Shown piece by piece: positions 1-52,479 of a DNA stretch of 64,000 bases (positions within the stretch are counted from its first letter, which is position 1; every line of letters starts with the position of its first letter). Source of the stretch: Psammoneis japonica (Eukaryota); assembly GCA_008632985.1 (NCBI GenBank), contig QPGO01000137.1, positions 62,001 through 126,000 of the forward strand, read 5' to 3'. Below the pieces are notes generated by a model. That model saw nothing but the letters and a program-made list of their open reading frames with translations. It did not search any database and had not been told where the DNA came from. The translations under genes and the position numbers were made by a program.

Positions 1-1589
1 TAGTCCAATTGGTCCATCAGGTTGTGAACTGTTCATTTGGTTGTCTTTGTCACTGCCGCTGTGGCACCAAATCAAATGTGCTGCCACAACTTGAAAAACA
101 AACAAATTCGATGAACATTCTCAGTCAAGACATTGCGCACTGAACCTCACGCAGATTTCTGCGTGATCATCACAGTGCGTTTTCTGCGCTGGTTGCAATG
201 GCCATCTGCGGTTGTTTTTGACAACTTCTTTTGATTTGACAACTGTGCAAGTGGCGCTGATTGAACATGCCAAGCAGATGTGACATGTGATGCAAATGAC
301 ACAGTGAAATGTTGTGCAGATCTTCCCAAAACAGAGCTGTTGCATTTTTGCTCTTCTGTTGAATCACACAAAGTCATTGCACAAGGCAGGCAAACAAGAT
401 GATTGTGGCACGCCAGCTGTCCTGTGTGCTGATTGAAGTGCGGTGGATTTAACACGCTTGTTTTTGTTTCATTCGCCTGAAGCTCAAGAGGTCAAATTGG
501 CCTGAGAAGCATGTGCACAAGCTTGACAGTGAATGAAATCACTGCGCAAGTCTAAAATTTTTGTTCTGATCAAAACAGAAATGACGCCAGTGCACTGGTC
601 AGAGCATTCCTGTTCAAATGGTGTCACTTTTGTTGTCACAAGTTGGAACTTGGCACTTCTGTGCACCGCCATTGTCATGTTGCATGTCATTTGGTCAGCA
701 ACAACTTCCACATTTTCATGTCTGTCGATGCATGTTTTGTGTTTGTTGTTTGTGGTTTGTCACAGAGATTGCAAAAGCATGGGCTCAAGCTCAAGAAATG
801 AGCTGGTGTGAAGGGCCACCACGTGAACCCCATTTTGCAAATGTGGGTTGGCCTGCTCATCTTTTTGCTGTCTTTTCTGCGTGTGTTTGAGTGAAGGGAG
901 AGGTGTTTCTTTGCCATGATGACTGCACCGGCAGCTGAGTTGTCTGAAGAATGTGATGATTTCAAAGAATGTGATGATGTTGTGAATTGCAACTCTAGAT
1001 GCAATGTTGCCAATTGCAATGGCAGTTGAAAAAAATGATGCCGCTGCAAATCGCAATTGCCACAAAACAGGTTGTTCCATTCTGAAGTGGCGTCCACCTT
1101 GTTGCATGACTTCACGGCAGATTGTGCAACACACGAGCATCAACAGATTCAAGGAGGGAATGATGTGAGCCATGCACCAACAAATCCATCCGGAGTGGCT
1201 CAATTTGAACACGGTGAAAAACACTTGAAGGGTCACGAAAATCCACAATCTGATGGACAGATGACAGACCAAATGTTCGCCAAAAAGGTCACAAATCGGC
1301 ATGCATGAAATTGTCCTGAGTCATGCACGCCAAACATTTCTCTGTTGAGGCGACACACCAGCCTGTTTCTTGAACTTGAGCCTGTGACAAAAGGAGGTGC
1401 CATGCAATTGGCTGAAAGACAAACAATTTTTGACCAGCTGGGCTGGAAAAGTTTGTTGTTCATTTGTTTGTTTTTTTTGCAATGGAAGGTCTCAGGAGTT
1501 TCGTTTCTGGGTGCACCTCCGGGTTCCCCACCAAATTTCTGCCATCATTTTCAAAGACCGTGCCGTGGCCATTCACATGGTCAAGGCAT

Positions 1590-2700
1590 GATTTGGGCAG
1601 CTGACAGAGCAACAACGGCACTGCTGCAGAAAACATTGCATCAATGCAACATCAGAGTGAACTCACGGGCATTGCTGGCTCTGACAAGGTGAGCTGGTGA
1701 ACAGATGATCTGTCTTTTGATGTCGCTGTGTGTGTGTTCTCCTGAAGGTGCTCCTGGCTCCAGTGTCTGGGACTGTCGAGGAGAAAGAAGACACCCAAAT
1801 GCCTTCACGTCACTTGGATGGTGTGATTGATTCAAATCTTGTTGGGTTCAGATGCTCCTTGCATGTGCATGACCGGTCCTTGCTTGAACCAGATGGTGCT
1901 GTGAAAAAGCAGATTTCCGTGCCTTCTCCAAGGCATGAATCGACATCATGCACACAACATGTGGCCACCCGACAAAATGCCATCCATCCAAACAGGCTTC
2001 CCACTTTCACAGGGCAGGATGCAAGAAGGACAAGATTTGGCCAATTGCCGTGAGAGCTCACATTTGCAGACCTTGCTTGGCATCGCGCCAAGGAAATTGA
2101 CAAGATGATGATGGAATCTGTGCAACAAAAGGCAAGAGCACTTGAGTGCTTGGTCAATCAAAGTGCACTGCTGGCCCAACTCCAACACAACATTGAAAAG
2201 TTTGCAATGGAGTTCATGCCAGAAGATGCAAAGGGCGCAATTTCTTTTGAAGTGGCGCCGACCTGCGCTGCTGACCCCTGCCTCACCCAAGTGCTTGTCT
2301 CTGGAGCGGCAGGCTTCATTTTGTCAGGTGATTCTAACTTTGCCATGCATGTTGGGCCAAATGGGAGCACAGTGGGGGATGTGATGCTGAAAGATCTCAA
2401 GCTGACAACCACAAAGGAGCCTGTTTGCTCTTGCAAAGTGCGCGCAGGACATGAGCTGATTGCGGGTCGCGTCCTGCAAATGAAGCTTGGGCACGATGCT
2501 TTCTGTGTGATGGTCATTGCTGCACTCCTGAGATTCCAGTCCTGAGCGGTGTTGAAGATCCAATGGTCAGGGCACTCACAGCTGTTGTGCTTGGTTGCGA
2601 TGTTGTCCCTGGGGGGCTGCGCAAGGGTCTGGGCCCAGTGCCGTCGCGTTGCTGCTGCAGAGGCACTCGGAGTGACCGCACAGCAGTTGTGCAAATCTTG
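1590..2700 (+). pseudogene. XPG/FEN1/EXO1-family (PIN-like) 5' nuclease relic
   Basis: Motifs in the expected order across frames: VIDSNLVGFR (XPG-N-like), FEVAPTCAADPCLTQ...ILSGDSNFAMHVG (XPG-I AP-EAD...DSD-like), and AVVLGCDVVPGGLRKGLGPV at 2581-2640 (H3TH GCD motif). Interrupted by stops and frameshifts. Confidence 0.65.
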
Positions 2701-3114
2701 ACATGAATGGAATGTGAAACGTGTCCAGTTTTCTTGGTTCATCAAACAAGGGTGTCAGGACCAGCTGTGGGATGGACTCTCTGCGCTGACATTTGGGAGG
2801 CATTTTTGTTCCGTGTGTCAGTTTCATGAGCGGCAATTTCGCAATTTCCGCTGATCCTCTCTGACAGACATCATGACATTGCGTGCTGCTGCAAAAAAAA
2901 AATGGCAGTGAGAATCGAGCATTTCGCAAAGCTTGGGCCACAGTTCTCGCGAAACAAGTGCGAGTCCATGTGCCATGCTTCATCACGCATGATGCAGGCT
3001 GAAAGCCCCCGAGGGAACCCGGAAGGGCATCCAGAACCCCAAAGCAAAGAAACGAAGGACAGACACAGGGGCGACTGACAAACCGAACCCGATGGCCATC
3101 ATCAGACCTTTTTC

Positions 3115-3675
3115 ATTGACCACTCAGTGGTTGGTGATTGCAGACTTTTTCGTGTCGGTCCGGCAGTGGGGCAGTCGGGCAGTCGGGTTGTCCGTCTGAA
3201 TTTGAAAGTGTGTCCCTCGGATTTTAGAACGGGATGGGTTGTTTGGTGCAGATGAATTCTTCGGATTCGCAGAATGATCATTGAGGACATGAGAGGTCGT
3301 GGGGACATCCTAAAAAATCGATAAATTCCCTGCGACGGGTGCGTGGCACGGTTTTTCAGGAGAGCTTGAAAGTGCTGTAAAACTGGGATTGCCGGCGTGG
3401 CATGTTGAAAAATGCACTCAGTTGCAAACAAAGACAATTGATCGTGAACTCTACATGAAACAGTCACATTTGGGAAAACATGTCAAACAACAAGTGAGTT
3501 TGTGTGATGCGCCATTGTGGCAATAAATTGGAAAAAAAAGAGTGTCCGTGCACCTTGCTGCAGCCACCGTGCGGTGGCCACACCGCTCAGCCGCTGGGGC
3601 CCCACGCACGTGCAGACAATGCAGCATGCAACGGCACACACCCACACCCACAAAAGTGAAAGACAAGTGGTCAAT
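3115..3675. mobile_element. Non-autonomous TIR element, short relative of the element at 43820-46210
   Basis: Ends are ATTGACCACT...AGTGGTCAAT. 3115-3565 matches about 45770-46210 in reverse complement, and 3610-3681 matches about 43814-43875 in reverse complement. Confidence 0.8.
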
Positions 3676-3745
3676 GCTCCCCGCAGGCCTGGTTCACATT
3701 TTTTGGGGAGGCGGCAACCTCAGCGCAACGACGAAGCCGACAAGG

Positions 3746-5191
3746 ATGGCTGCGGCAATTGACCTTGAGGCGTTTTGCTGCGAGGGCTCTCACAGCAATT
3801 ATGATTCGTTCAAAGCTGGGAACGGGTTCGGCCCCTTCGTCATTCAAAGGAGCACTCTTTGCAACGAAATCGTGGGCTTGGCTTCTCCGATTGTTTCCAT
3901 TCATTTAAGTGGTTGCAAAGGTGCTGGGAAGACCACCCTGTTGAAATTGATCAGCAACGACCTCGTCAAAAATGGAAAGAGAGTCTATTTTTTTAAGAAA
4001 TCCAATGACATTGACATCTGCCAACGCGAAATTGGGTGCATTCTTGCCAAGAAAGAGGAGGCACACTTTCTGATTGATGAAACACAAGTGAATGTGAACT
4101 CGTCAATTTTCACGCTGTTGCTTAAAAATGATGAAGATCACCGCGTCACCACAATTGGAGCAGGTGTTCCTGCCTTCGAAACAGCCTCAAGTTCCTTTGC
4201 ATTGACGATTGCTGCGAATCACTTGTTCTTGACGTTGGAAGATCTTCAAATTGAGGGCGTGATTGACTTTTTAGCCGAGGATGTCATGGAGGCTAGCATT
4301 GGAGGTCGCATTGAGCACCTGCTGGAGACTGTGCGCTTGCATGTTGGAGGACACATCCACCCTTTGATGAGGCTTGCCGAACTGCTTGTGCCCAAACTCA
4401 AGACGGAGGGCCACTCCACCGATCGGGCCATCAGTCACTTGAATTCGGCCAAGTTTCGCACTTTGCTGCCTTTTCGGCTCCTTGCTTCCAGGATCACTCC
4501 AGCTTTGCAAGATGTCAACATCCGCACAGTTTTTTACCCAGAAGAATGTTGCCTTGGTCCAGAGGTTCAGCAACTACAAAAGCGTGGATTCTGTGACTAC
4601 AATGGCAGTGTGACATCGATGTTGCTTTTCGACCTTTATCTTGGGAATGTTGGGACCGCAAATTCCTGTCCTTTCACTGGTCTTAATGCTGGTGTTGTTG
4701 GTGTTCAGGAGCTGCTTTGTTGGGGTGTGCCGCGCATGTCTTGGACACACTACGAAGCCCATGGAGGGGCCGTCAAAGATGCGCTGACATTCGAATTGCT
4801 GAGAAAACTTTCAGACTTCAAGCCGCTAAAAGTTGTGCTTTTCAACCCTAAACTCGTTGCTGCTGGAATGGCAGCACGGCAACCTGACACACATTTTGAC
4901 TCTGCTGCACACTCTTGTGTCGAATGTGTGCTTGCCAAAGACAACACTCGGTCATCCAGACAAGACGTGGAGAAGCACATTTTGCGGTTCTTCACACATG
5001 ACAATGCTCAAACTGCGCACTGTGAAATTCAGGACGCCAACTTCGCAGTCCTGCACTTCCAAGACTGGGGAACGGCTCCAATGCAGCTGCAGGATGAAAT
5101 CTGTCGAAGGTCTTTCAACACAAGAGTCTTTGCTTTCTTGATGAAAACAAAGGAACTCTGTTTGGGTGACACGTGTCTTGCAAGCCATTAA
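3746..5191 (+). CDS. P-loop NTPase plus C-terminal PD-(D/E)xK-like nuclease (Crinkler/RHS-type NTPase-REase architecture); frame open but partly hypermutated, function doubtful
   Basis: Walker A GCKGAGKT, Walker B-like FLIDE, helical GGHIHP segment and C-terminal QPDTHF...VECVL. The ORF track extension to 3542 runs through the upstream TIR element, so ATG 3746 (MAAAIDL) is the likelier start. Confidence 0.6.
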   Translation: MAAAIDLEAFCCEGSHSNYDSFKAGNGFGPFVIQRSTLCNEIVGLASPIVSIHLSGCKGAGKTTLLKLISNDLVKNGKRVYFFKKSNDIDICQREIGCILAKKEEAHFLIDETQVNVNSSIFTLLLKNDEDHRVTTIGAGVPAFETASSSFALTIAANHLFLTLEDLQIEGVIDFLAEDVMEASIGGRIEHLLETVRLHVGGHIHPLMRLAELLVPKLKTEGHSTDRAISHLNSAKFRTLLPFRLLASRITPALQDVNIRTVFYPEECCLGPEVQQLQKRGFCDYNGSVTSMLLFDLYLGNVGTANSCPFTGLNAGVVGVQELLCWGVPRMSWTHYEAHGGAVKDALTFELLRKLSDFKPLKVVLFNPKLVAAGMAARQPDTHFDSAAHSCVECVLAKDNTRSSRQDVEKHILRFFTHDNAQTAHCEIQDANFAVLHFQDWGTAPMQLQDEICRRSFNTRVFAFLMKTKELCLGDTCLASH

Positions 5192-6169
5192 GAAGACCGC
5201 CCCATTTCTTCCCTCTTCGTGGCTCTGAACAGGAAAATTGCCCGAAACAGACAAATTTTTACCTCACTCAGATTAAGTCGAATAGACGGAATCTGTGATG
5301 CACAAAACACGCTGGTGAGAAACAGGCATGCCACAGCCAAAGTGAACCCAACACCAGTCAAGAGTTTTTCTGTGTCTTTTGCCGCAACCTCACGTTCTTG
5401 CTTCATTGATCTGACGCAATGGGCGCACCTGCTTGCCCTGCTTTGACCCGAGATGTGCTTTGTCTGTGAAATCCAAAATGCCCTGTCATGCAAAATGACT
5501 TCTGCAAACTGTTGGGCCTGCTGCCAAAGCACCCCTCTGGAGCAGTGCCACTTTGGCGCATGTTCTTTTGCATTCTTGGGCAACTGCGGCTTCAACTTGA
5601 TGTTTCTGCTTCATTCCCAGCCCTTGGATGTCCAGACAAATGTGCGCGCATGGTTCAAGGTTCAAGATGACAAGCTGTGATGCTGGAACTCCAAGGAAGG
5701 TCAGGTGGTGGCAACTTGTTTTTCAAGGAACAGCCTTGTTAAAAACATCATGTCACACTTCTTGACAGCAAGTGTTGCCATTTGTGCCATGGCATTTGGT
5801 GCTGACTTGACCATCAAATTCTGGCCTTGCACTTTTAAGGATGGATCATCCAGATGAGGCATTTCTTTAATTGGCTCGTGATTTTGCAATTTCCCTGCAC
5901 TTCGCTCGTGTTGTTTTGCGATGCCTCTGAGCACCCCCAAACACATGTGACTGTGTCCAGACCCCATGCATCAGGGCTGTTGGATCCATGTGTGAACTGC
6001 ACATTTCAACCTTCAAATGCCAGTTGTCAGATTTGGTGCAGTTGTCACATTCGACAAACCGCTGTTTTTTTTGCCAAAATCGCACTGCTTGTGGGAGACA
6101 AGCCACAACTTTCCAGGAAAAGCCGACAGTTGGCGTTTGACTGGCCACAGACATGTCTGCAGTCGTCAA

Positions 6170-6601
6170 GGTCATGGTGCGGGTGCAAAAGTGGGCCAGA
6201 TTCTACGTGCGCAGAGCTTGGCATGTTTTCCACACAAATCGCCAAAGTTGGCTCGCCAACTTGAACCCTCTCCAGGACAATGGAAACTTGGACATTTCAC
6301 ATGACAAAGTGTTTTGACTGCTCAATCACACTCTCCTCAACTTGTTTGGGAAGAGAAGTCACAAGTTTTCACAGGTTTCTGAGGACACACAACGAATCTA
6401 ATCAGAAAGGTGCCGAAATCGTGATGTTCGAGTTTTAAAGAGCCACACAAAACGAGTCCAAACACTTTGTCATGTGAAATGTCCAAGTTTCCATCATCCT
6501 GGAGAGGGCTCAAGTTGGTGAGCCAACTTTGGTGATTTGTGTAGAAAACATGCTAAGCTCTGCGTGCGTAGAATCTGGCCCACTTTTGCACCCGCACCAC
6601 C
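6170..6601. mobile_element. Foldback/MITE-like element with about 145 bp TIRs
   Basis: 6176-6319 is the reverse complement of about 6456-6599. Begins GG, ends CC, flanked by TCAA (6166-6169) and TCAA (6602-6605). Confidence 0.8.
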
Positions 6602-6605
6602 TCAA

Positions 6606-7104
6606 GGATGGATCTACATGCTGCGGTCTGTTTTTTGGGAGCTCGCAATTTTTGTAAAAACAACCCGGATGCATCGCAGCAAATGCGCGTGCATTCGCAA
6701 AAAAAATTTCAGTGATTGGTCGAACTTTGTCCATTCGCCAGACACCCCAGAATGCTCAAACGACAGGTGTGACCATGTGCGACTTTTGCCTTGACGACTG
6801 CAGATGTGTCCATGGCCAGTCAAATGCCACTCATCGGCATTTCCCGGAAAGTTGCTGCCAATCTCCCATGAGAAGCCCAATTTTAGCAAAAATTGGCGGT
6901 TTTTTTGACCTGACAACAGGGCATGGGTCGACAAGTGGCATTTGAAGCACTGAACGTGCAGCTCTTGTAGCCATCTGACAGCCCCTGTGAGGGTTTGACG
7001 AACGCAAAAGTGTTCGGGGGTGTTCCGAGGCAGGTCAAAACAACACGGTGAAGTGCGGGAAATGCGAGCCATTTTAAATTAGACCGCAGCACGTAGATCC
7101 ATCC
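6606..7104. mobile_element. About 500 bp non-autonomous TIR element, TTAA-type target
   Basis: TIR GGATGGATCTAC(A/G)TGCTGCGGTCT at both ends, flanked by TCAA (6602-6605) and TTGA (7105-7108). Confidence 0.8.
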
Positions 7105-9989
7105 TTGAGCTAAAGATCGCGCATGGTCACAACCATCGCCAACACATTCCATGATGTCTTTCGAAGGGACAAAGTTCGGCCCATCGCTGAAAACATTTTG
7201 TTGGCGAGCGTGCATCCAGTGCAAGAAATCCGGGTTTTTTCCAAAAAAATGCAAGCTCATGCACAAACAGACCTCATCTTGACGATCCATCCTCAAATCA
7301 TTCTCCTGTTTTGCTGACTCACCAGTGTTGTTAAGGGCGGCCATGCTGCTGGGTCAATTGCTGTCAGACGCTGATTTCAAAAACTTCGCACATTTGGCAA
7401 TTGTGGGGTGGAATTTCCGAGCAACTCTGTTGAGCCAAGCTTTGCTCCAAGATTTTCCTGCCAAAAGGATTTTCCTCACATTTTCCGTGCACTGCCAAAA
7501 AAATGTGCTCTCTGGAGCAGAGAGGAGCGGCACAATCCAGAAATCAGCACTCAAGTCAAGTGCCGCCAAAAAAATCAAAGACTGACATCATGATGTTTTC
7601 TTGCTGAACAGCTCAAAATCTTGTCAATCTGCTTCCACCAACCTGAGAACTGTTTGTTTGTAAGAAAACAAGCTCCCAGTGCAAGAAAATCTCAGTGGTC
7701 ATGCGCGCTGTTGCGCGAGTGAGACCCCATGCAGAACAGGTTGTTTGTGCTTTTCTGCATTCTCCGGAGTGACGTGCAGACCAGACTGAGATTGCCCGTA
7801 GAACGTCAGCACAAACAAGCAAAAAATCTGCTTCATTTTTCTTGTAAAATGGCCAAAATTCACTTTGCTCACCCGACATGATGTCAGTTTTTGAGTTTTT
7901 CAGTGGCACCTTGCTCAAGTTACAAAACAATTTGGCAAAAAAGTCATGAACAACTTGCTGCCCACTGCAACACCCCTCCCTCCTCCAAATTTCATTTTTA
8001 AAGTGGGTTCAGGAACATTCAAAAAAGGGCAATCCATTGCTGGCTGAATCTGGTGAGATGCCGGAAACAAGCTGAATTTGTTGTGCCAACTTTTGTTTTT
8101 CAAAGACATTTTGTTCTTGACAAAAAGTCACAGACAACCCATTGATGTGAACAATGCATTTGTTTGACATCAAGTGTGCAAGTCCTGTTCATCCCAGATT
8201 TTTTTTGTTTGAAGCAACCAGAAACAAGATGTTGGGTGCACACACAATTGTGTTGATGACAGCATTGAGGATGCTTGTTTGAAGATGATGTTTTCTGTCA
8301 AGATCAAGTCTTGAACAAGATTCAATGCTTCCACAAGAAGTCTTGCACTCAGTGCTTCAACACAGTGTCTTGCAACAAAGACTGTGTTCAAGAACTCACC
8401 GCACTTCAGAAAACATGTGGCACATTGCTGTCACACTTGGTGGAAAGCAGATTTTGTCCTTCTGCAGCAAGCAAGCAAATGACTTGCTCAATTGCCTGTC
8501 CCAATGAATTGTTGCAAATGCAAATTTTGACATGCCTGGCAGGATGGTGCTTGCCTTTTGTTTGTTCTTCAACAGTTGGGAACTGCTCAGAAAAACTTGC
8601 TGCCCCGCTGCATGTCAACAATGAGTCTGGCCATCAGGGCTCTTGTGTCACCCAACTGAGAGACCAAGCCACGTCAACAGCAGCAGTCTTGATTGCTTTG
8701 ACTGCAAGGAGGCCACCCAATTTCTGCCATTCTCAATCAAAACAATGAGCTTGCCAAGGCTCTTGGGTGGACACTCTCTGTGCTTGTTGCCACTGTGTTC
8801 ATCATCTGATGCAGCCATGGTGAGAAAATGCTGCCACTGCTTAGATTTTTGGCATGCATTGTTGTTGCTGCCTGTCCTCTTCCTCCTCTCACCAGGTTGA
8901 ATGCATTGGGTGCAAACTGGTGACACAAAGACAACAAACAGTGCAAGAACAACTTGGTGGCAGAGACAACAGATTTGTTGTGGAAGACACACACAGAGCC
9001 AGAGCTGCGATGTCATGAAATGGATGCCAAGGCCACCAAAGAGCAAAAAGAAGCAGTGTCTTGCACATGCAGCAGCCATCCTCATCTCACCAGGTTTGAT
9101 GCACTCTCTGTTTTTTCTTGGCAAACAATCAAGAAGAGAGGCACAACCATGGGGGAGGATTTGGATGGCAGTGAAGCTGCAGCACACAACTGTTGCATGC
9201 ATGTTCATGATTGCACATCATTTGTGTGTCAATTGTGCCACAGTCGTGGACACGTGCAAAGGACAGAACGATCACACAGAGTTGATCAGATGTCGAAAAT
9301 TGCAAATACAATCAATTGACAATGTTGACATCTTGCGTGTCAACAGCAATCGTGTCTGGACAATCTGTTGTCACAAATGCATTCTCCGAAAGGCCTTTTG
9401 TCTGTGGAAGCAGCACAGAAGCTTTGGGCCATTGAGAACTCATTCGGAGAAACCAAAAAATCACAGAGCAAAATTTAATCTCACAATTTTCACTTTTCAT
9501 GCTTGACTCCACTTTCATTTGTGCTCGTTCTTTGAGCACAGTGCATTGTGCATGCACACCACAGAAGGCAAAAACACGGAAAATGAAAATTTTGGCTGAT
9601 GTGCCTTTGCAAATTCTTCCATGAGCAGGCATGAAATGCACTGGTTCTGCTGGAATCGATTTCCGAGTGGAAGCAGCTCAATCCGAACAGTGCCTCAAGA
9701 TGGAACTCCATTTTTCATCTTCAAGACAAAAGGATTTGTTCCAATGCGATCCATTTCAAGCACCTCATGATCAAGGACTCTGCAAGTGCACAGCATTGTC
9801 AAAAATCCTCACCAAGTCATGGTTGGGCAGAATCTCAAGTGTTGAGTCAACCAGGTCCGAGAAATGCATCTGCCATGCAAGGAGAGACCATTGGAGAGAA
9901 TTGGGAGACCGAATCAACGAGCCTTGAGTCTGAAGACCAAGAAGAAAGTGTTGAAAAGTGCCTCAAGAGTCTCTTGTCTCATGTCTTCT

Positions 9990-12970
9990 GAGAAACCACA
10001 CTTCAGAATCAGAGTTGTTATTTTCGAGACAATCTGAAGAAACCAAAGTGCAAAAGGGTGGTTGGAATCAAAGATCCAACCACGGTGCAAGGCAATGCAG
10101 TGGTTGTTCACAAGACAGCACAAAGTCATGAAGCCATCATTGCAGGTCATCACATCAAATTTGCCACCTGCTGCAAGGGAAATCGTTTGTTCCACACTGC
10201 TGTGAAACTAAATGTTTGAGTTTGCAGGCAGGAATTTTCCCTTCAAACGACCGTTCAACATGTGCTTTGCAAACAACACGCGCTTGTTGTCAGTGTCAGC
10301 ACAGCTGGCAGATGTTTGAATGTGAGAAGCAGCGCAGTCTCTCATTTCCACGTCACCAGCATGATCAAGAGCACTGGCCAGGGAGGAAAAAACGCAAGTG
10401 TCATTTTGTCCTTGCAGGAATTTCACAGGTGGACCACTCATCAGCAAGTTGCTGTTTGATGGCATCAACACGTTTCCTTCCGGCAAGGAGCAACAACCAT
10501 CCCATGGCTTCAATTCTTTCAAATCTTTCCACACATCTGGAAACCAAAACTTAAAATTGTGCTCAGCCCAATCCAGGGTTGCATGCATGGGACGGTTCCC
10601 CTCCAAGCTGCAACCAATGAAATCAGCTCCCTGCCCAACAGGTGGAAGTTTTTGAATCTCCACTTCAGTCAATCTCTTCAGTTTGGCAATCTGTGGTGGG
10701 GGTTGCAAATCGATTCCACCTTGTCCTTAATCTCGTTCCTGCATTTTCGATTGAGTTGCTGGGGAACATTTTTGTTTTGTGTTTGGCACGTGTGACAAGG
10801 GCCGCATGCGTGTTCATGGAATGGCCATTCATTGCATTGCAACATTCATCAAACCATGGTTTGCACAACATGACGCCCTTGTTTCCTTCTGGAAAGCAAC
10901 CAAACAAGTGAGGAACAGATCCTTTGGAATCACCAGGATGCTGTTCCCGGCTGCTCCACGTTTTTGGATCAATCCACATGAGTTTTTTAACCTGCAACAT
11001 CTTTTGATTGTCTTCACATGCTTGCTCAAGTTGATCCCTTTCTTCTTTGTGTTGCACGTCTTTGCTCAACTGATGCCATGGAATGGCTCCTTTTGCCCTT
11101 GCCTTCGGCCTGGAGCTGTGAAGGCCAATGAGATCATCATCATTGCTCACTCCAGTGATGTCTTTCATGAGCTCCATCTGGCATCTGTGACTTGTGTCTC
11201 CCACTCTCTCCTTCTTCTCTGCCTTTGTGTCTCTGAGTGCCAAGTCTTCTGCAGCCTTGTCTTTGTCTTCTTCTTCCTCGTCTTCATTTTCCTCCTCGTC
11301 CTCAGTCAATTCATCCATGGCCCCAGCTTGATCTTGCTCCTCCTTGTTTTTGTCTTGCAGCTGCAACCTTGCAGTGCCAGCCTCAGCTTTTTGCAGGTCA
11401 CCCATCTCTTCAGTGCTGTCCTCCTCCTCTTCTGTTTCATCCATGTCTTCAGCACCCTCCTTCACCTCTTCCCTTTCCTCCTCCAACTCTGCCTTCTCAT
11501 TTGCATCCCATGTAAAAGCGTGATGCATGTGACGATGGCAACAAATCCTTCTGCAAAACTTGTGCCATGCAAGCCCAGGAGCTGCCTTGCACCAACCAGC
11601 TGGGTGAGCCGGTGGCTCCTTGCAGCAGTCCTCCCTTTTTGGCCCCTCGGGGAAGTGAACTTCAAAGATGTGCTTGTCATTGTTGACAGCATCCACTGGC
11701 TTGGAGTGTCACTGCGGTGTAGAAGGCTTGCACACCTGGTCCAGCCAACACAGACAGTCTGTGTCTTCATCAACATTGGGCAGCCACATCACATGGTTGT
11801 GCCACCAACCTGTGATGATGTCAAACAATGCCTCCGATGGCAGCATCTCCTTGGGGTCGCACGGCCCAAACGGGAAAATCCTCTGGCAGCCCATTGTGCA
11901 ACAGATGAGCACTTTGCATTTTGTGCAGCTGGGAAGCTTGGCAATGTGCATGTCTTCCTCCATGTCATCGTCTGGCTGTTCAAGCTTCTCCCTTTTGCAA
12001 CACTCATCGTGCAAAATGCAGTCATGGTTGCCAGACACATCGCCCTTCTTCAACTTCTTGCAGTTGGGGCATGGTTTGCGATGCTGCTTTTCATCCACCT
12101 GATTCCTCTGAGCAATTTTGTTGCAAACAGAGTGATGGTTGATGATTGCACCCCAGTGCTGTTTTGCAGATAAAACGGGACGACTTGTTTCACAGCGGAA
12201 CTTGACACATGCAATCCCTTCAAAGCCAACATTTCAAAATGGTTCTTGAATCCCTTCAGAGACTTGATTTGCCACCAACTTTTATGCACAACATTGCCAA
12301 AAGGCAGCCATGCTTTCTGCCTTAAATCTTTGGTCGATTTGTCAGGATCGCAGGCTTCCAGGTCTTGAGTGTTGAGCAAAGATTCCTTGTGGAATCGGAG
12401 CTGGGCATTGAGCAAATGACCAGCAACGCAGGTTCCTTCAGCAAGTGGTTCCTCCCAAAAGCCTTCATTTTGGCTGATCTCTGCTGTGATGTTTTCATGC
12501 TCTGGGCTGGAATGAGGCAATGGCAAAACAATTGCAGAGCTCATTGGAGTGATCGTCTTCCTTGCACACAGGGAAAGAGTGTTGCCTTTGTCCTTCTCCG
12601 TGAGATGCTCCCACTCCTCCCAGTGCTTGCGGACGTCCGCCAGGTCAGAACGTTCACTCATTGTGTCTGTGATGTCCTCGAAACCCAACACTCCCACGAA
12701 GTAAGACTTCAATGTCTTCTGACAATGAAGGTGTGCATCCAGCTTCTTGGCAACGCCACAGCAAATCGCTTGTTGGGCGAGTCCAATCAAAAAAGGACAA
12801 ACACCTCTTGCGCAAAAAATGCGCGTTTCGATGTATCCCGGCGCCCAAGGCACAAGTCGCCAACCTCGACGATGATACGAGCCTCAACAATAACATTCGC
12901 AACAGAAGATAGCGATAAACATCCTCTGTCGCCATTCTCCAGTGTTGCACGTTTCAAAATGAAACCCAAG
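9990..12970 (-). pseudogene. Relic of a large protein with an acidic low-complexity middle and a C-terminal papain-like fold
   Basis: Collinear minus-strand fragments 12050-12853, 11709-12098, 10665-11696 (E/D-rich), 10208-10708 (FLQGQNDTCVFSSLASAL) and 9914-10195 (NNHCIAL..WIFDSN), giving Q-C...H...D spacing. Confidence 0.5.
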
Positions 12971-13153
12971 CTTTCTGCTCACAACTCTGGAGCAAGGTTT
13001 TCAAGGTGGCATGCGTCGGAATGATTGTTGCCTCTTTGCTTGTCAGATTCTGCCATTTGCTCTTGCTCTGAAACCCGAAACCACCAGCACAATTGTTTGG
13101 TGGAGGGCAGTGGTGGAGTTGGTTGCTGGCCGCTCTCTACTCTCTAGCTAGCT

Positions 13154-13662
13154 ATGCCGTTGGAAGTGGCAGTTTGTGCGGCGCTTTTGGCAGTCGCCGC
13201 TCAAACGAGCAGCCAAGCAGAAATCTTTGTTGAAACCATGAGCATCCGAAGAAAGCGGAAGGAGGGAGAAACGCACCAGCAATCCATCTGCAAGGAATTG
13301 AGTATATTCACAAAGCATTTTTGGTCCGAGTCTTGACGTATCCTCTCAACATCGTTCCTTTTGTCGGCACGGCCTTGTGCGCTTCCATCAGTGCTACTTT
13401 TATCGGCTGGGAAATGATGGATCGGCATTTTGATGTCATTTTTCTTCTTTCCAAGTTACAAAGAATAGAAGTCTTTGGAGACGACAAAATAGAGTGCAGG
13501 GTACTGTGGAGTCCCGGTTTAGTCCATCGACGCACGATCAGTCGAGTGAATACGCTCAGTTTGGTTTCATTTGCGCCTTTCTCGAGGCGACGCCCACCCA
13601 TGATTGGACCCGTTGTCTTTTCTCTCACCGGGGCGGCGGCACTCTTTTGCAAGCGATGTTGA
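13154..13662 (+). pseudogene. EI24/CysZ-like membrane protein fragment with frameshifts
   Basis: VLTYPLNIVPFVGTAL...IGWEMMDRHFD, then EYAQFGFICAFLEA and MIGPVVFSLTGAAALF, which lie in different frames. TpA content is normal. Confidence 0.5.
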
Positions 13663-13979
13663 AGAATGATGTAGTATTCCGTCCAGTCGTTTGGTGGACA
13701 ACGAAAAATATTGCCAGTAAGCCAAACTATGGGGCGACACAAGGTTAGTGGTGCAGAAGAACGATTCTTCAATCATCGTAAGATAGATGCAGCATGAGAC
13801 CAGGCAATGATTAGAGGAATAACTAAAGTACATGTATATGCAGCTCTGTGTTCTGATTCTAAATGCGTCACGTTGACTCGTATTGACTTTTTTTGAGTGC
13901 GTATTCGTGACTTTCCCGCTACGTCGTTTGCCCGTCCATTTTGAATTTCTGGCGTCACGTTTGGGAAATAATTGGAGAA

Positions 13980-16900
13980 CTAGTCACTATCAATCCGTTC
14001 AAAGGTAATCTCAGATGCACGTCGATCTTCAAGCGACGAGAAACCGACCAGGTTATAATCATTGACGACAGTCACCCAGTTGCCGCCCGGTGTAACAACT
14101 TGATCTTCATTGTCAACCGCAACCAACGCACGCTTGCACCCGTCCTTGAATTCGTTGTAATACTCTTTGAGAACAAACCATTGAGGGTCACCCCCGCCTC
14201 CCTTTAGATACCCTTCTTCAGACAGCTTGATCCAACGATTGCGTCCGATATTTTTGATGCGAAAGAGGTTTGGGTTGTTCTCGTGCGCAATCAACTTCCA
14301 ATTAATATAGTCGGCAGTAGGACTAGTAAGATCTGTCTTCACCTTGTAGTCAGGCCAACCCTTCATCTGGAGGTATCTATCTCCAATCATGAGGCGGTAG
14401 TTTCCATTTCCGACATTTTTCCCATATCTGCAAGAACCAAAGATGTTCCATGCTCGGTTTGTAAGCTCTGGCTTGAATTCCAATCGTTCCTTAAGCGAGT
14501 CGAAGTCGTCGTCACTGTCGTCGGTCCACTTGACATATTCATCGTCCATGTAGAGGTACCTACCATTATTATGCAAGTAGAACCACATCTTTTCCCCAGT
14601 GCTACCAAAGTAGAATTTCCTCTCCCTGTTCTTGATCCCTCCCACATACTTGTTTTCGTTCGACAGGCAGGCAACTGTAACACCGTCGTCGTAGTACTTG
14701 AAAGGCTTGAGTTGATCTTCAACATAAAGAAACTGGTAATCGTCATCATCAAGCATTGCGTGACTCGCTTCTATCGCTTCCAGCCGGTAGTCGTCTCCTT
14801 GTCCTTTCATCCTCAGGTAGCGATTTTTGGTAGTTCGCAAGTTGTAAGTAAAACCCCTGGAATAAACGAGAAAGGATGCATTACAGCATCAGTTTGAGAA
14901 AGTGACAAAACAGCGAGCACGTTGGAAGTACCGAAAAACGCAAAAGGGAAGACAGTCAAGAATCTCAAGAGGATTCGTACTTACCCACCAAGGAGACCAT
15001 ATTCCTCTCGGTTATGTGGTGCGAATGGAAGGGGCTGACAAGTTTCGGTCTCCCATTCACAAAAGTGATGGACCCCGTAAATGTTCCGACACGCCGCATT
15101 ATCACCGTTGCACTTTTGATACTCGCCTGCAGGGTAGCATGGGTTCTCCCTCGTGCATTCCGTGTAGCACACGCCATCTAGACAGAGACCGCCAGCACAT
15201 TGGTAATCATTCTCACAGCCTGTCTTTCCGGACGGAATCTGTTTCTGTAAGTCCTCAAAGATCTCGACAACGTCGACGTTTGCCATCCTCTTGTGAGCAT
15301 CATCTCCATTCAAGTTATCCCAGTTCTTGAATGACGCTTTGCAATCGTTCCCTTGGTCTCCTTTCGTCTCGTATTGACAGCACGTTAAATCATCCTTCGT
15401 CTTACCCTTTTCCTCGAAGTAAAAGCCGCAGGCAATGAGACAGGCTGCGAGAGAATCATTCTCAACATCATCATCGTTCTTGGAGTCAAACATTAACTTC
15501 TTATCTGGTTTGCATCGTTTTCGCTCGATAAAGCCAAAGCCTACGTCCCTTCGGTCACTTGAGGACCTTTTGGATCCAAAGCTCTTGAAGAGCTTCTTCA
15601 CTCCACTGGATAAGGAACTGTAAGAAGCGGGAGAGACAAGAACTCGACCATACGTAGCTACCGCACTAGTGGCTCCATTGAAAATGCTATTGGCCACTGC
15701 TTCTCCGAAACTAAAGTAGAGAAAAGCAGTTATACAGAGAAGAAGTAAGAGAAACGGAAAAGACGAAACAAGGCCAAGCTCTATAACACACTTACTCGAT
15801 ACCGTCTTCCCAGATTCCCTCACCAAAGCTAAAGTTGAAGATATCAAGGTTTAGTATACAAGTGGCTCGTGTAAAAGAAGAGTTTGTCTGAACCACCCAT
15901 CTCCAATCTTTGTTTGCATGATTGCGACTTACTTTGCGGTTTTCTGTGACCACTCAGCCACCACCTGCTCATTTTTATCCCATTGACGATCACCAAAGTT
16001 CGATGCATAATCGTATCCTGTGTTGACTGCCCGATACGTTGCCTTAGCCGCGCCCTCAGTCAAGTCTGCAAAGAAACTAAAAATTGCCTGGCCACCATTC
16101 CAGTCACAATCAAAACCAACCCTGCTTAATTCATTGTTTATCTTTCCATAGCATTTAATTTTGAAACCGCTTGCCTGTAGAGAGTAGTGTCAGCAGCGTA
16201 TGAGGTACAAGTAAGAAGACTGCAGCTACCCCACTCCCGCCGCTAGCCCTACACTTACCATCAGAAGGAATTCGAAGATCTCTTCCTTCATTGTGATTCC
16301 AAACTTGCTGCTGGCGAACGAGGTCTCATCCACCACCTTGGTACATCCCTCTTGACTCACATTCGAAAAGCCAAAGTCAAGATAATCACAAAGTTTCTTA
16401 GCAATCGTCTTGATGACTGATCCTTCTCCCTCAATTCTCATGTAGGTACCGTGGTCCATTCCTTTGTATCCAGAGTTAGGGGGGATCGTAATACTTGAGA
16501 ACTCGGCCTTGGAGACTTCTATGTCTGGCAGGAATCCGCCTGTAAGAGATTTGAAATTTAGTTTCAAGGTTCCCTCTGCTGTAGTGGCTTGAGGCACGAA
16601 GAGATTATTTCCTCCATTGCCGGGAAGGAAAGTCATTTCACGAATCTTTCTGGCCACATCCTCTGGTGAAGCAGAGTCAAGATCGTCAAGCTCGGCTTGA
16701 AAGTCTTCAACAGCAATCGTGGGGTTAAGGAGCTTGGCCATTGTATCGGCAACACTTGCAAAGTTGTACGCAGTTGAATAGGTACTTGGTAGGTCTACAA
16801 TGTTCAAAAAGTCTAGCGCTGGAGGAAGAAAGGGAATGCTGAGGGATCCCCCAATCCCCAAGAACCAGTGGGCCTGAAAGTCGTCCTGTTTGAACTTTCC

Positions 16901-17653
16901 GTCCTTGAGGTACTTGACTGGAACATCCATGAAGCTGCTATGCGTTGCCAGGGCAACGGAGACCCTCTCGAGTCCAACTCTTGAGGCAACGTAGGCCACG
17001 GTCTTGATGAGACCATGGATCATACTGATGCCATTGCCATGGTTAGCATTAACAAGGGGGTTCAGGTTTGCACCGGCATCGAGAAAGAAGCTTCCACCTG
17101 CAAAAGCATCTCCATTTTCGCACAAACAGGCAGCCACACACTGCTGACTCAGAAAGACATCTCCATTAGCCCCTTCTACCTCAAAGTCAGCAGAGAGAGC
17201 GCCATACTTGACGTCACTGGCAAAGGGGAGAAACAGGCACTGCGCCCCATGGTCTCCACTACCGGCATTCATCTCGAACCCGCTAAAGTCTCCAGCACAA
17301 AACTTGGTTTCCAGAGAAATATCTGTCCATGCGGCTTCATCGTTTGCTTTTTCACCTATCTCTTCCACGATAGGATCAGCAAAGCTCTTAAAGAATCTGA
17401 CAATTTCATCATCAGAGCTCCCTGCGATTGAGTCTACCACACCCTTGGCAGTCTCCAAGGCGATCGCGACGTCTGCTTCGGAAGGCATCTCTGTCGAGCT
17501 AACGCAATCGTAGGCGAACTCCGTGGTGAGACACTCGCCCACATCGAAGATGTTGTTGCCTTCAGCAAAGAAGACATTCTGGCCCGTCTGACGAGAGACT
17601 ACTGCCAGCAAGAAGACGAGTGGATGATGCGGTTTCTTTGGATGAATGATCAT
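13980..17653 (-). CDS. About 1090 aa putative secreted multidomain protein (unknown N-terminal region, Cys-rich module, C-terminal beta-trefoil-like repeats), 5 exons
   Basis: Exons 17653-16259, 16174-15933, 15828-15796, 15710-14985 and 14856-13980 are joined by GTAAGT...AG introns with matching phase (3273 nt in total). Hydrophobic N-terminus; repeated YxLxxxxRYLxMKG-type units at the C-terminus. Confidence 0.75.
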
Positions 17654-18194
17654 CCTGGTTGGGAATGGCCAGTGTTCCTGTTGCGCTTGCTCTTGCTGAC
17701 AGATCGAAGCCAAGCAAAAGTAGTGGAACGAACTGCGAATTATGAGAGCAGCAAGCTTTGTGAAAGTCTTCCGCAAAACGTTTCCCGTTTCCCCTCCGCA
17801 CTAAATGCAACGTTGCTTCTGCTGATTCGAGTTCGGATTTGTGCCGCAAATGACCGGCGAGAGGCATAAATAATGGTTGTTCCTTCTAAGGGGTTAGGGC
17901 TGTAATTTTGTAGAATCAATACTGCAGAATACGAAGGCTACATTACTTTTAAGAATTTAAAGATTATTTATTTAAGTCCACAATCATCCACCCAAATTAA
18001 ATTCACAACACGTTTATAGAGGACATTGGCGAACAGGAAAAGGCCGAAGCGCTCAAGTGACATTATGTGTGTAATTGCAGGAGCAGCTGACACGATGTTA
18101 AATGTTGCCAGACAATCAAGAAAGCGGCACCGGACATCGGAAACCGCTTGAACGGTCTTTGTAAGACGGGCGGTGGTCACGAACGCTTTCTAAC

Positions 18195-27700: not shown

Positions 27701-28850
27701 GTTTTTCTTTGGCTTGAATGTCAGCCAACAAAAGTCTGTCAGCTGGTCTGCTGCTGCAGCATGGCACCAGCATCCCTGTTGTGGTGCATTGACTTGCACA
27801 GCTCCACTTTGCTGCAGCATCAGCCTTGACACAAAACTTGCATGTCTTTTTGGCACACCAATCAATTTCCAACCAAGCTGTGCCCATGTGCCATGTTTGT
27901 CATGTGCTCACACCTGTGGTTCAATGAAACATGTGCACAACTCTCATGGGCTTTCTTGTCTGCCTCTGTGATGCAAAATGGGCAGCAGTGGCAAAAGAGA
28001 AAAGAGGCCATTTTGGCTTTTTTTTCAAAACCAAGTTCAGCACCGTTGGGGCAGCCCAGAGTGACAGCTTGTTTAGAGCCCACCTTGGTGCTCAGGTTGC
28101 AACTTTTCTCAAAAAACTTTGCAACACTGACCTTCAGAGACCATGGTGCCTCCAACACTTGAAAGGGGAAAATTTGCTGCCTGTCACCTTCACAGCTGGG
28201 GTCTTTTTGCCTCTTGGAGATCAATCTGCAGACTTTGAAGATCCTGCAGGTGAGCTGCATGCCTTTCACTCCCTCTTGCAGTGCTTCACAAAGGCTTGGT
28301 GCAACACACTCTCTGCAGCGTGCTGTCCTTGCAGTGCTCAGACTTGAAGGCTTGCCATTTGTCATCATCATCATCTGGAGCTTTTTGGTGCAAACCCATT
28401 GTCAACTGCCATCACTCATTGGGACAACAACCTGTTGCCCCAGTTTGTCTTGATGGACACCAACTTGCTGAAGCAGAATGGCACCACCTCAGAATTGACG
28501 GGCTCTGGTGAAAACCTCTTCTGCAGAGCTCCTGACAGATGTCCACGGCACTCTGCTCAGAGCAGTGCTCCTTGAGACTTGGGTCTGTGCTTTGTTGGGG
28601 GTGGGGTGGGCAGTCAAGAATGTGCCATGGCCAAGAAAAACAGTTGTCCAACTGCATGCAGTCTCATCGTTTGGGGCACCAGAGATGTTGTCTTTCAGCG
28701 AAACACGTTTTTTTTTTGTTTCAATGACACTTGAAAGCAGTGTGTAAAGATGAGTTGAACTGTTTAGCAGCACTTTGAGTTGCATGCTTTTCAGTTTGAT
28801 GTGTGGGCGCAAAGCTCAGAAGAAAAGAGGATCACGGACAACTGTCATAG
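24700..28850. other. Hypermutated block C
   Basis: Near absence of TA and CG between about 24800 and 28740. Confidence 0.9.
25330..27100 (+). mobile_element. Ty1/copia pol relic (post-integrase region and reverse transcriptase)
   Basis: NPVLDSRTHDVEFPDG...IAENLFSQKDSEG; EPAFHWWV; HKFDIKLLKSV; FWFKAIKKE; CHMVFNIK; KPEEHLGAQI. Confidence 0.85.
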
Positions 28851-28993
28851 TGTGAAAGCAGTGATGAAGTCCGCTAGTTTTGTTTAGAATGCTAGTCTTG
28901 TAACTGTGTCTTGTGTGTGCAATGTTTGATCAAGAGAATCAATCGCAAATGACACCCTTTCCATCAGCATTTGCACATAAAGTAATAATGTAA

Positions 28994-30093: not shown

Positions 30094-30199
30094 TCTGATG
30101 TTGTTTCTGGTGAGCTGCTGTTGATATATGCCACTGCTTCCGCTGGCTGCTGGTCTGTGCCGCTGTTGCTGGATCTTTTTAATGCATCGCAGTGTCCGT

Positions 30200-31700: not shown

Positions 31701-32286
31701 TCTGTTTGCCGCTTAAGATCTCTACACGCAGGGCAGTGGCGCCTCCTCAGCAATTTTTCTTTTCGCAGCTGGAAGAATCCATTCGAAACACGAGCGGTGC
31801 GAGTCTTCAATCTCAGTTCAACGAATGCCATTGAGAACCCACTCATACTCCAAATGCACCAGCTCGTTCGTATACGAGACTGCTGTTGCTGCAGCTCAAA
31901 CCTTGTGATTGCACGATATGATGTCAAAGGGGTGCATGTGGTGGAACTGTTCTTGTGGGGAGGAGGCTCTTGTGTTGCAGGTCGCGTCGACGAGAATAAA
32001 TACCGATGCGACAGTCAATACGTACATGATAGAGATGTAACAAATGAGCAGCATACAACCAAGGGTAACCACCACCGGAACTTATCTTTCAGTTAGTTAC
32101 TTGCTTCGGACTGATGTCGCATCCAGACGATCTAAGTTCAAAGAGACACAAACTCGTCGCCTCCTCACAGTGTTACCGTTTTGTGTCGAATTCTAATCTT
32201 TTCCCGCCACCTTTTGTTGTTTGGCAGTCTTGAGTTCTAATTTGTCTTTCTCGTAGGCAAGTCCCGATGAGTGTCCTTTCTCATTC

Positions 32287-33471: not shown

Positions 33472-33630
33472 GGCTGGATGGTGTAACGATGACAGAAGAC
33501 TCAGAACACCACAACGCACGACAATACAGTACAACAGCGTCGTCTTCGTTTTGGTGCAGAGATCACATACAGTACCTAGGCTTTATTTATCTAGCTAGTA
33601 GTGCTGTCTGTCTACTGCGTCCGTTGACTA

Positions 33631-52430: not shown

Positions 52431-52479
52431 CTTGTTTGGAGCCAACATCCAATCCATGGCCTGCAAATCCTCAAGGAAT

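Follow-up and report, generated by a model that had tools for sequence, protein, structure and literature searches.

In a 64,000-nt stretch of the genome of the diatom Psammoneis japonica (assembly GCA_008632985.1, contig QPGO01000137.1, positions 62,001 to 126,000 of the forward strand; hereafter the window), the dinucleotide TpA has been lost from most of the DNA. Its place has been taken by TpG and CpA. The pattern is probably the product of a regional hypermutation that converts TpA to TpG or CpA, with a single-copy open reading frame (ORF) at 3746–5191 among its targets. The spectrum and direction of the changes, the flanking-base rule they obey, their regional clustering, their lead over the decay of CpG and the occurrence of differences of the same type between the window and a public sequencing run, X1, are all directly observed.

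3746–5191, + strand: probably partly hypermutated single-copy ORF of 481 amino acids plus TAA, with a predicted STAND/AAA+-type P-loop NTPase in its N-terminal part and a predicted alpha/beta domain with a PD...E motif in its C-terminal part

The frame is open for 481 codons and then ends in TAA. It contains 16 TpA, an observed-to-expected ratio (O/E) of 0.165, and 57 CpG (O/E 0.68), so that the many CpG recorded in the initial annotation of this DNA are indeed there. The base 5' of TpA is T or C in all 16 cases, which comprise 7 YTAY, 9 YTAR, no RTAR and no RTAY (R, purine; Y, pyrimidine). By comparison, ten long ORFs from the window's islands of normal composition carry 331 TpA on their sense strands, of which 166 are RTA (Fisher P = 2.7e-5, binomial P = 1.5e-5). 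A control of normal composition comes from L001, the homologous DNA of a metagenome (43% identical), in which 20 of 38 TpA are RTA, with O/E values of 0.50 for TpA and 1.17 for CpG; it is one short locus and the sole match of the metagenome scan. The bases preceding the six Tyr codons of the ORF are T, C, T, C, T and C. Both earlier readings, that the plus strand lacks RTA and that every remaining Tyr codon follows a pyrimidine, thus hold.

Normal ORFs lead one to expect, per 1446 nt, 9.3 RTAR, 17.3 YTAY, 7.1 YTAR and 15.3 RTAY, where the ORF has 0, 7, 9 and 0. The surviving share is about 33% for TpA and about 75% for CpG. The stop codon itself is part of TTAA, the tetranucleotide that best resists the change. 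TpA in Tyr codons survive about as often as other TpA of the ORF (6 of ~16 expected versus 9 of ~33, P = 0.52), and hence give no sign of purifying selection against the process.

In the depleted blocks of the window, the share of TpA that survives relative to the islands depends strongly on the flanking bases:

YTAR: 0.265
RTAR: 0.072
YTAY: 0.070
RTAY: 0.014
TTAA: 0.48
TTAG / CTAA: 0.25–0.30 (TTAG 0.30)
TTAC / GTAA: 0.09–0.13
CTAG, CTAC / GTAG: 0.06–0.07
TTAT / ATAA: 0.05–0.06
ATAC / GTAT / GTAC: 0.01–0.02
ATAT: 0, none of 42 left

A multiplicative model with one factor per strand, set by the base 5' of T, closely reproduces the tetranucleotide values, with protection in the order T>C>G>A. 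The fit of this per-strand model defines the target as 5'-R-T-A-3' changed T to C or, equally, as 5'-T-A-Y-3' changed A to G, on either strand. Under this rule RTAY is lost first and TTAA last. The TpA pattern of the ORF is an intermediate stage of the same rule: only YTA is left because, on each strand independently, susceptibility depends on which base precedes T (A>G>C>T), and the absence of RTA reflects mainly this general preference rather than strand bias. CpG follows a rule unlike that of TpA. Its survival of 0.17–0.58 depends only weakly on context, with a mild effect of AT-rich flanks.

Over the whole window, TpA has an O/E of 0.21 and CpG of 0.46, with TG and CA both at about 1.6. 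A 500-nt map resolves compact islands of normal composition at 13.5–18, 22–24.5, 29–30, 32–34.5, 49.5–50, 54.5–58 and 62–64 kb, and about 70% of the window stands at a TpA O/E of ~0.06. Whereas the islands (16.5 kb) have TpA at 0.58, CpG at 0.91 and a GC content of 46.6%, the depleted blocks (44 kb) have TpA at 0.06, CpG at 0.30, TG at 1.82, CA at 1.77 and a GC content of 48.1%. Other dinucleotides are nearly unchanged between the two. The loss of TpA and CpG (~70 per kb) is matched by the gain of TG and CA (~74 per kb). Four features of the window bear on the order and direction of these changes:

1–8000, no strand: TpA-first stretch, with TpA O/E 0.00–0.24 and CpG O/E 0.27–0.85 per 500 nt
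32569–33302, − strand: near-normal copy, part of the ORF at 32290–33582 (−), whose partner at 58171–58906 is hypermutated
58171–58906, − strand: hypermutated copy of 32569–33302, TpA O/E 0.02 and CpG O/E 0.07
26542–27098, no strand: duplicated segment with its partner at 51852–52398, both copies hypermutated, with many TG/CA swaps between them

The first pair of paralogues gives the direction of change as TpA to TpG or CpA, since one copy is near normal. Of its 19 TpA, 10 read CA and 6 read TG in the partner; of its 31 CpG, 15 read CA and 11 read TG. In the second pair, adjacent TG/CA swaps between the copies indicate independent hits on each after duplication. The members of each of the two direct-repeat pairs (within 26542–33302 and 51852–58906) are separated by 25.3–25.6 kb, a spacing suggestive of an old segmental duplication.

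The loss of TpA runs ahead of that of CpG. Across the 128 segments of 500 nt, the two O/E values are correlated (rho 0.78) in a nested relation. Both are low in 74 segments, and TpA below 0.15 occurs together with CpG of at least 0.5 in seven, six of them within 1–7500; the TpA-first state extends over 8 kb and not over the ORF alone. The converse, TpA of at least 0.35 with CpG below 0.5, occurs in none of the 128. This nested pattern argues that TpA conversion is faster than CpG decay and not its by-product. The suggestion that TpA loss precedes, and is separable from, CpG decay is thereby strengthened, by seven segments versus none, by ~33% versus ~75% survival in the ORF and by the different flanking rules. 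The description of the ORF as showing TpA loss without CpG loss was overstated. Its CpG O/E is 0.68, 12 of 43 residue changes on its lineage are of CpG type and R159H is polymorphic with respect to X1.

The same process can be read in the protein. Searching a large protein collection with the ORF returned 27 relatives, 22 of which were aligned with it (23 sequences). The named relatives are diatoms (Nitzschia inconspicua, Bacillariaceae sp. and a Synedra transcriptome), and the family is present in the diatom transcriptome collection (MMETSP entry P0020). The closest relative, P0001, is 65% identical. Among the 22 homologues, the position of His 107 (AHFLIDE) is Tyr in 73%, that of His 199 in 64%, that of His 205 (GGHIHP) in 91%, that of His 383 (DTHF) in 68%, with Phe in the remainder, that of Cys 391 (SCVE) in 86% and that of Cys 426 in 95%. 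Cys 472 (ELCLG) is matched by Tyr in 55% and Phe in 45%, the three closest having Phe; in X1 the codon is TAT (Tyr). All five peptides that had been picked as former Tyr positions from the sequence alone are therefore borne out by the alignment. Homologues that share His or Cys at the same positions were looked for; most have Tyr, with His in some at columns 199 and 425. Tyr makes up 1.2% of the protein, versus 1.9–4.1% in the homologues, and the protein's contents of His (4.2%) and Cys (3.5%) are the highest among the 23 sequences. Six of the eight Tyr codons conserved in the three closest homologues have been lost.

With P0002 and P0003 assumed to be outgroups to the ORF and P0001, 43 residue changes fall on the ORF branch versus 20 on the P0001 branch. 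When changes are scored as TpA or CpG type wherever such a route exists, 13 of the 43 need one TA to TG/CA step, 12 one CpG to TG/CA step, 16 another single-base change and 2 more than one base. The 18 changes outside the TpA and CpG classes match the 20 of P0001, so that the excess on the ORF branch is entirely of TpA or CpG type. Six of the 43 changes on the ORF branch replace Tyr by His or Cys, and none of the 20 on that of P0001 does. At highly conserved columns (≥90%), the ORF keeps 87 of 95 residues, and the closest relatives keep 92–93 of ~96. Read by codon, the eight positions at which the ORF deviates include five of TpA or CpG type.

Differences of this kind also exist between data sets. 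Among the public sequencing runs listed, the locus is found in one DNA run, X1, and in no RNA run. Contigs of X1 were compared with positions 1–20000 of the window; 40 of its 131 differences from the window are listed, and contigs hide minor alleles. Single-copy contigs have depths of 56–70. A single 2270-nt contig (3667–5936) of depth 64.6 contains the ORF, which is thus in single copy, and the flanks of the ORF reach summed depths of ~5000 (2669–4002) and 1000–3400 (5337–7337). These depths identify the ORF as a unique 2.3-kb island between high-copy repeats. The features concerned are:

3115–3690, no strand: high-copy repeat upstream of the ORF, which it abuts, ending ~60–80 nt before the ATG; depth ~5000 versus ~60 for single-copy DNA
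5937–7337, no strand: high-copy repeats downstream of the ORF, depth 1000–3400, with a foldback at 6175–6319 / 6455–6599
4220–4222, + strand: codon 159, CAC (His) in the window and CGC (Arg) in X1; Arg in the three closest homologues
5159–5161, + strand: codon 472, TGT (Cys) in the window and TAT (Tyr) in X1, a TA to TG change between two data sets
16768–17601, − strand: cluster of 10 TA to TG/CA differences in X1, inside the ORF at 16229–17800 (−) and beside the repeat boundary at ~18.0 kb

Over the depleted unique stretches, X1 differs from the window at 0 positions in 950 nt, 1 in 1778, 3 in 2270 and 0 in 1411. Such near-exact agreement argues against an assembly artefact. Of the three differences on the contig of the ORF, those at codons 472 and 159 are among the listed ones. 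Because the three closest homologues have Arg at 159, the latter is a CpG to CpA change (R159H) in the allele of the window. A 5962-nt contig covers the gene island at 12712–18673, and all 11 of its differences fall within 16768–17601; ten of them are TA in the window and TG or CA in X1. In this cluster 10 of 27 TpA sites are changed, and of the 190 on the rest of the contig none is (P = 1.6e-10). The effects on the ORF at 16229–17800 are Y345H, Y341C, Y297C, S288G, M260V, I148T and V67A, together with three synonymous changes, and in X1 this ORF looks like a fresher hit than the one at 3746–5191. Over the single-copy contigs as a whole, 12 of the 15 listed differences exchange TpA with TG or CA and the other three exchange CpG with TG or CA, and a purine stands 5' of T in 9 of the 12 TpA events. 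The X1 differences suggest that the process acted recently.

Whether hypermutation proceeds on one strand at a time is less clear. Along the plus strand, the changes of the X1 cluster read A to G once, T to C four times and A to G five times. These three runs have P ~0.05 by enumeration of 210 arrangements, a hint, though not a decisive one, of action on one strand at a time. In the ORF, the asymmetry of 7 YTAY against 0 RTAR is due largely to the reading frame, because an in-frame TAR is a stop codon and six of the seven YTAY are Tyr codons. The idea of strand-biased rounds, raised initially from this asymmetry, is accordingly weak and unproven. The X1 runs and a P of ~0.03 for the ORF asymmetry against the normal-ORF expectation speak for it, and the dominance of the reading-frame effect speaks against it.

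The repeat neighbourhood of the ORF also carries marks of the process. An inverted copy of the upstream repeat 3115–3690, at 45767–46210 with 80% identity, is more heavily mutated (TpA O/E 0.03 versus 0.19 in the upstream repeat, CpG 0.23 versus 0.89). In one X1 contig, the upstream repeat ends at 3687 and is followed by sequence that matches 19310, which indicates that other copies of this repeat run into the repeat bordering the gene island at 13.5–18 kb. Downstream, inverted repeats are nested, the inner pair at 6175–6319 / 6455–6599 (93% complementary) and the outer at 5889–6171 / 6789–7063, with an X1 depth of ~3400. The structure at 5889–7063 may be a foldback element or one resembling a miniature inverted-repeat transposable element.

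Under the genetic code, no sense codon can become a stop codon through a TA to TG/CA change. TAA that turns into TGA still ends the frame, TAG gives TGG or CAG, and a change that spans two codons places G in the first position or C in the third. Among CpG changes, only CGA to TGA creates a stop. The frame of the ORF is still open because TA to TG/CA changes are unable to close it. Since the spectrum makes no stops, an open frame is not evidence of selection and is weak evidence for function, and the initial description of a still-open gene, correct for all 481 codons, carries little weight. TAA and TAG together occur 2.8 times per kb of strand in depleted DNA versus 19 times in normal DNA. In depleted DNA, two overlapping frames on opposite strands, at 10755–12170 (+, 472 amino acids) and 10668–11708 (−, 347 amino acids), have no family match; both are probably spurious, arising from the near-absence of TAA and TAG. 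The stretch 11001–12000 has a GC skew of −0.19 and an AT skew of −0.30.

By its sequence, the ORF belongs to a diatom family of STAND-type P-loop NTPases. Its protein has intact Walker A (GCKGAGKTT) and Walker B (FLIDETQ) motifs. Pfam returned P-loop matches below threshold only; nSTAND_NTPase5 scored 22.8 bits, its cut-off being 34, and the same model is matched by all 23 family members. A profile search of solved structures gave P-loop matches only, over residues 31–150. The 23-sequence alignment was used to build an AlphaFold model, whose mean predicted local distance difference test score (pLDDT) is 84.5. Residues 1 to 300–380 of this model superpose on a wheat NLR resistosome (VIA-align Z 14.3, root-mean-square deviation 3.9, 273 residues aligned), and further matches of this part include a second NLR resistosome (Z 13.2), Avs5 (Z 11.3), archaeal AAA+ ATPases (Z ~11) and Orc/Cdc6, the STAND and Orc/Cdc6 matches lying at Z 11–13. 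Foldseek agrees with VIA-align, and for the full-length model the ATPase domain dominates the results of both. Walker A, Walker B and an NB-ARC-like predicted fold together place the protein among STAND/AAA+ P-loop NTPases.

The C-terminal domain has no Pfam match in the family. When its 147 residues are folded separately (pLDDT 74), the best structural matches are nucleases of restriction-endonuclease fold, among them PaqCI (Z 6.1), CdiA-CT nucleases (5.8), SfsA, NucC, Cap4, Can2, several type II restriction enzymes and the Avs4 nuclease. By title, about half of the 50 listed matches are nucleases of this fold, and none of the 50 reaches a Z of 8. The family shows no variation at P380-D381 and E393, and the position of the canonical Lys is Val. 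From the model, the domain is a probable restriction-endonuclease-like nuclease, plausible rather than established. The designation NTPase-nuclease, given initially from the sequence, can thus be kept for its NTPase half, with the Walker motifs and a Z of 14.3, and is no more than plausible for its nuclease half, with Z below 8 and Val at the Lys position. Like STAND NTPases with nuclease effectors of the NLR/Avs type, the predicted protein combines an N-terminal fold close to NLR proteins and Avs5 with a C-terminal part resembling the Avs4 nuclease. Unlike them, it has no sensor repeat domain, its Pfam scores are below cut-off, its C-terminal part gives weak matches (best Z 6.1) and the Lys of (D/E)xK is not conserved (consensus YVECV). 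Viral relatives are absent among viral contigs, in which none of 45 pattern matches was related, and tblastn found no paralogue of the ORF within the 64-kb window.

Other contents of the window are sparse. The window has 79 stop-to-stop ORFs of 150 amino acids or more, and 78 of them were scanned with Pfam together (the ORF at 3746–5191 being scanned separately), and three matched: a MULE transposase, DUF2358 and a LON substrate-binding domain. With matches in only 3 of 78 ORFs, the depleted blocks are not assignable to repeat families. The MULE transposase domain remnant, at 40837–41379 (−, E = 1.6e-8) within a strongly depleted block, is the sole recognisable transposon protein of the window. 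The LON substrate-binding gene at 62190–63362 (−) lies in a normal island, and its best named match is Seminavis robusta with 47% identity. This match and the relatives of the ORF both point to a diatom or a close relative as the source of the window, one that has no near kin in the protein collection. Arrays of 10–12-nt tandem units (TTGTCCTCAA and its complement) stand inverted, 7.5 kb apart, at 35639–35783 and 43100–43177 in the largest depleted block. Rfam and tandem-repeat scans of the window gave nothing relevant.

Taken together, we propose that a regionally targeted process would convert TpA to TpG or CpA, by a change of A to G on one strand or the other, and that a slower decay of CpG to TpG or CpA would act on the same regions. 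Both would have turned about 70% of the window TG- and CA-rich and poor in TpA and CpG, leaving compact gene islands untouched. The ORF, as unique 2.3 kb between high-copy repeats, would have been drawn into the targeted zone and would have lost about two thirds of its TpA and about a quarter of its CpG. Targeting may follow repeat-associated silent chromatin and spill into neighbouring unique DNA, a notion suggested by the position of the ORF between high-copy repeats and of the X1 cluster against a repeat boundary. The decay of CpG would be deamination of 5-methylcytosine.

The chemistry of TpA conversion is more tentative. Adenine deamination in 5'-T-A-Y-3' by a TadA/ADAT-like enzyme acting on DNA is our preferred candidate, although taken alone we hold it to be somewhat short of evenly balanced. 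It is favoured by the preference of TadA-type enzymes for U or T before A, by its having been proposed for the precedent described below and by the X1 run pattern, which would suit a processive enzyme on single-stranded DNA. Wild-type TadA is reported to depend on a UACG motif and TadA-8e to prefer UA (PMC12296453), preferences that fit T-A-Y. From sequence, A to G at T-A-Y and T to C at R-T-A are indistinguishable.

Several points weigh against this account, in its chemistry and in its wider claim. The known substrates of eukaryotic ADAT2/3 mostly have a purine after A34, the opposite of T-A-Y. ADAT-type mRNA editing in fungi is likewise reported to favour UAG and UAA (PMC11156358), again the opposite. 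For the ORF, the tree behind the branch analysis was assumed, and every change with a TpA or CpG route was scored as such. With 87 of 95 highly conserved positions retained and Walker A, Walker B and PD...E all intact, its protein could still function under selection; to call it a target being destroyed would then be too strong. A pyrimidine precedes the codon in three of the seven Tyr to His changes, which makes the flanking rule a bias and not an absolute. X1 is a single run that may be related to the sample of the window. The ORF at 16229–17800 gave no homologues and no Pfam match, and the direction of change in its cluster is therefore taken from the general direction of the process. Finally, the block boundaries used for the survival values were drawn from the TpA map itself, so that the magnitudes are approximate and the ranking of context classes is unaffected.

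Among other explanations, modification of thymine is the one we take most seriously, unlikely as it appears. Here, a thymine in 5'-R-T-A-3' would be modified, for instance to 5-hydroxymethyluracil (5hmU) by a TET/JBP-type dioxygenase, would mispair with G and be replaced by C, with the decay of methylated CpG as a sister process. The flanking rule can equally be stated as a purine 5' of T, T to C at R-T-A being inseparable from A to G at T-A-Y, and both eroded dinucleotides are pyrimidine-purine steps that end as TG or CA. In dinoflagellates, 5hmU is concentrated at TpA and TpC. Against it stand the open-access literature retrieved for diatoms and 5-hydroxymethyluracil, which is, judged by title, all on dinoflagellates, and the different flanking rules and kinetics of TpA and CpG. 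ADAR-like hyper-editing of adenosine to inosine in RNA, followed by reverse transcription and reintegration of retrocopies, is far less probable. ADAR enzymes prefer G after the edited A, and of their signature the T before A is found in the window and the G after A is not; a pyrimidine after A is favoured instead, and TAG and TAA are the most resistant contexts (TTAG 0.30). The ORF is in single copy and in place between repeats, both strands are hit, unique non-coding DNA is depleted too and no reverse transcriptase is among the Pfam matches of the 78 long ORFs. All this outweighs the dominance of repeats in the depleted DNA and the reported liking of ADAR-type enzymes for U before the edited A (bioRxiv 10.64898/2026.01.13.699255).

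That modified TpA and CpG in silent DNA are merely miscalled as TG or CA, and that the ORF really encodes Tyr, would in principle fit the alternation of TG and CA between paralogues if miscalls depended on strand. This, too, is very improbable: X1 reproduces the depleted single-copy stretches nearly exactly (0/950, 1/1778, 3/2270 and 0/1411), and differences between the two data sets run both ways, with TG in the window against TA in X1 at one place and TA against TG or CA at others. Paralogues also show indels and other substitutions, as in real divergence, and the same signature has been reported from Illumina sequencing of mutation-accumulation lines in another alga (bioRxiv 10.64898/2026.01.13.699255). 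Ordinary divergence, by which His, Cys and the rarity of TpA would stem from lineage-specific protein evolution and codon usage, seems to us the least credible of these readings. It would accommodate the open frame, the 87 of 95 highly conserved residues and the homologues with His at columns 199 and 425. It leaves unexplained why RTA is 0 of 16 where normal ORFs have 50% (P = 1.5e-5), why the non-coding flanks in 1–8000 are equally TpA-poor and why the ORF has twice the changes of P0001, the excess being all of TpA or CpG type. Nor does it account for the X1 codons TAT (472) and CGC (159). Two further candidates were dropped. Biased T:G mismatch repair of the VSP or TDG kind would regenerate CpG rather than erode it, and GC-biased gene conversion is at odds with an unchanged GC content and a dinucleotide-specific effect.

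Regional TpA hypermutation has a close precedent in the chlorarachniophyte alga Bigelowiella natans. In its mutation-accumulation lines, 231 of 302 new substitutions are reported from integrated giant-virus and virophage regions; all but one of the 231 are A to G or T to C, and all of those lie on TpA (Mettrop et al., bioRxiv 10.64898/2026.01.13.699255). The same preprint describes hypermutation in some lines only, at ~6e-7 per site per generation, and 124 genomic clusters of windows poor in TpA and rich in CpA and TpG, and it proposes an ADAT2-like adenine deaminase (bioRxiv 10.64898/2026.01.13.699255). The resemblance to P. japonica lies in almost exclusive A to G or T to C change at TpA (16 of the 19 TpA of the paralogue pair; 12 of 15 listed X1 differences), in regional clustering (sharp 500-nt blocks; the X1 cluster with P = 1.6e-10) and in a footprint of TpA depletion with CpA and TpG enrichment (TpA 0.06; TG 1.82, CA 1.77). 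As reported, the process in B. natans is intermittent, some of the clusters carry transposon domains and single-copy DNA is also within reach. There are also clear differences. The host here is a diatom, and TpA is at an O/E of ~0.06 over ~70% of the window, versus 0.45 in the region of nucleocytoplasmic large DNA virus origin in the preprint. High-copy repeats and the MULE remnant lie in depleted DNA and might count as foreign targets, but the ORF belongs to a diatom family without relatives among viral contigs. A slower CpG decay accompanies the process here, and a flanking rule of A>G>C>T governs it; the main text of the preprint contains neither "CpG" nor "flanking" nor "trinucleotide", and makes no mention of diatoms (bioRxiv 10.64898/2026.01.13.699255). 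In the open-access PMC and bioRxiv literature, we found no diatom report of TpA loss or of a process like repeat-induced point mutation (RIP). The same TpA signature is so far known from this one 2026 preprint on an unrelated alga, and P. japonica is a second lineage.

RIP in ascomycete fungi is similar in producing regional, dinucleotide-specific transitions in repeats, in mutating copies independently and in an apparent leakage into adjacent unique genes. Whereas RIP turns CpA into TpA by C to T change and lowers GC content, TpA is here destroyed, GC content is 48.1% versus 46.6% and no stops are made. As regards duplication as a trigger, the ORF is in single copy, one pair is mutated in one copy and another pair in both. 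The decay of 5-methylcytosine in methylated repeats shares with our data a slower, weakly context-dependent change of CpG to TpG or CpA in the same regions. It cannot remove TpA, and because TpA loss precedes it under a different flanking rule, CpG decay is a companion and not a cause. TadA/ADAT enzymes and the DNA editors derived from TadA are alike in deaminating adenine with a strong reported preference for U or T before A (PMC12296453). The natural enzymes act on tRNA, and their link to this genome would be by analogy.

The occurrence of the process in a second, unrelated algal lineage, with a far larger footprint, suggests that it is widespread and able to shape whole genomes. Its flanking-base rule constrains any candidate enzyme, the data point to its separability from methyl-CpG decay, and the allelic differences make it experimentally tractable. 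For annotation it carries a warning: long open frames abound in hypermutated DNA and damaged genes stay open, so that open frames in such genomes are poor evidence of function. A bolder proposal, which we consider possible but rather doubtful, is that diatoms possess an active genome defence by DNA adenine deamination, probably through a TadA/ADAT-derived enzyme with T-A-Y preference. It would act in bursts, each covering a few hundred bases and mostly confined to one strand, would be aimed at repeat-associated silent chromatin, would have converted most non-genic DNA of this genome and would still be active, as the allelic clusters and the spill-over may indicate. If this is true, then together with Bigelowiella, TpA hypermutation would be an ancient trait shared across stramenopiles, alveolates and Rhizaria, a stop-codon-free counterpart of fungal RIP.

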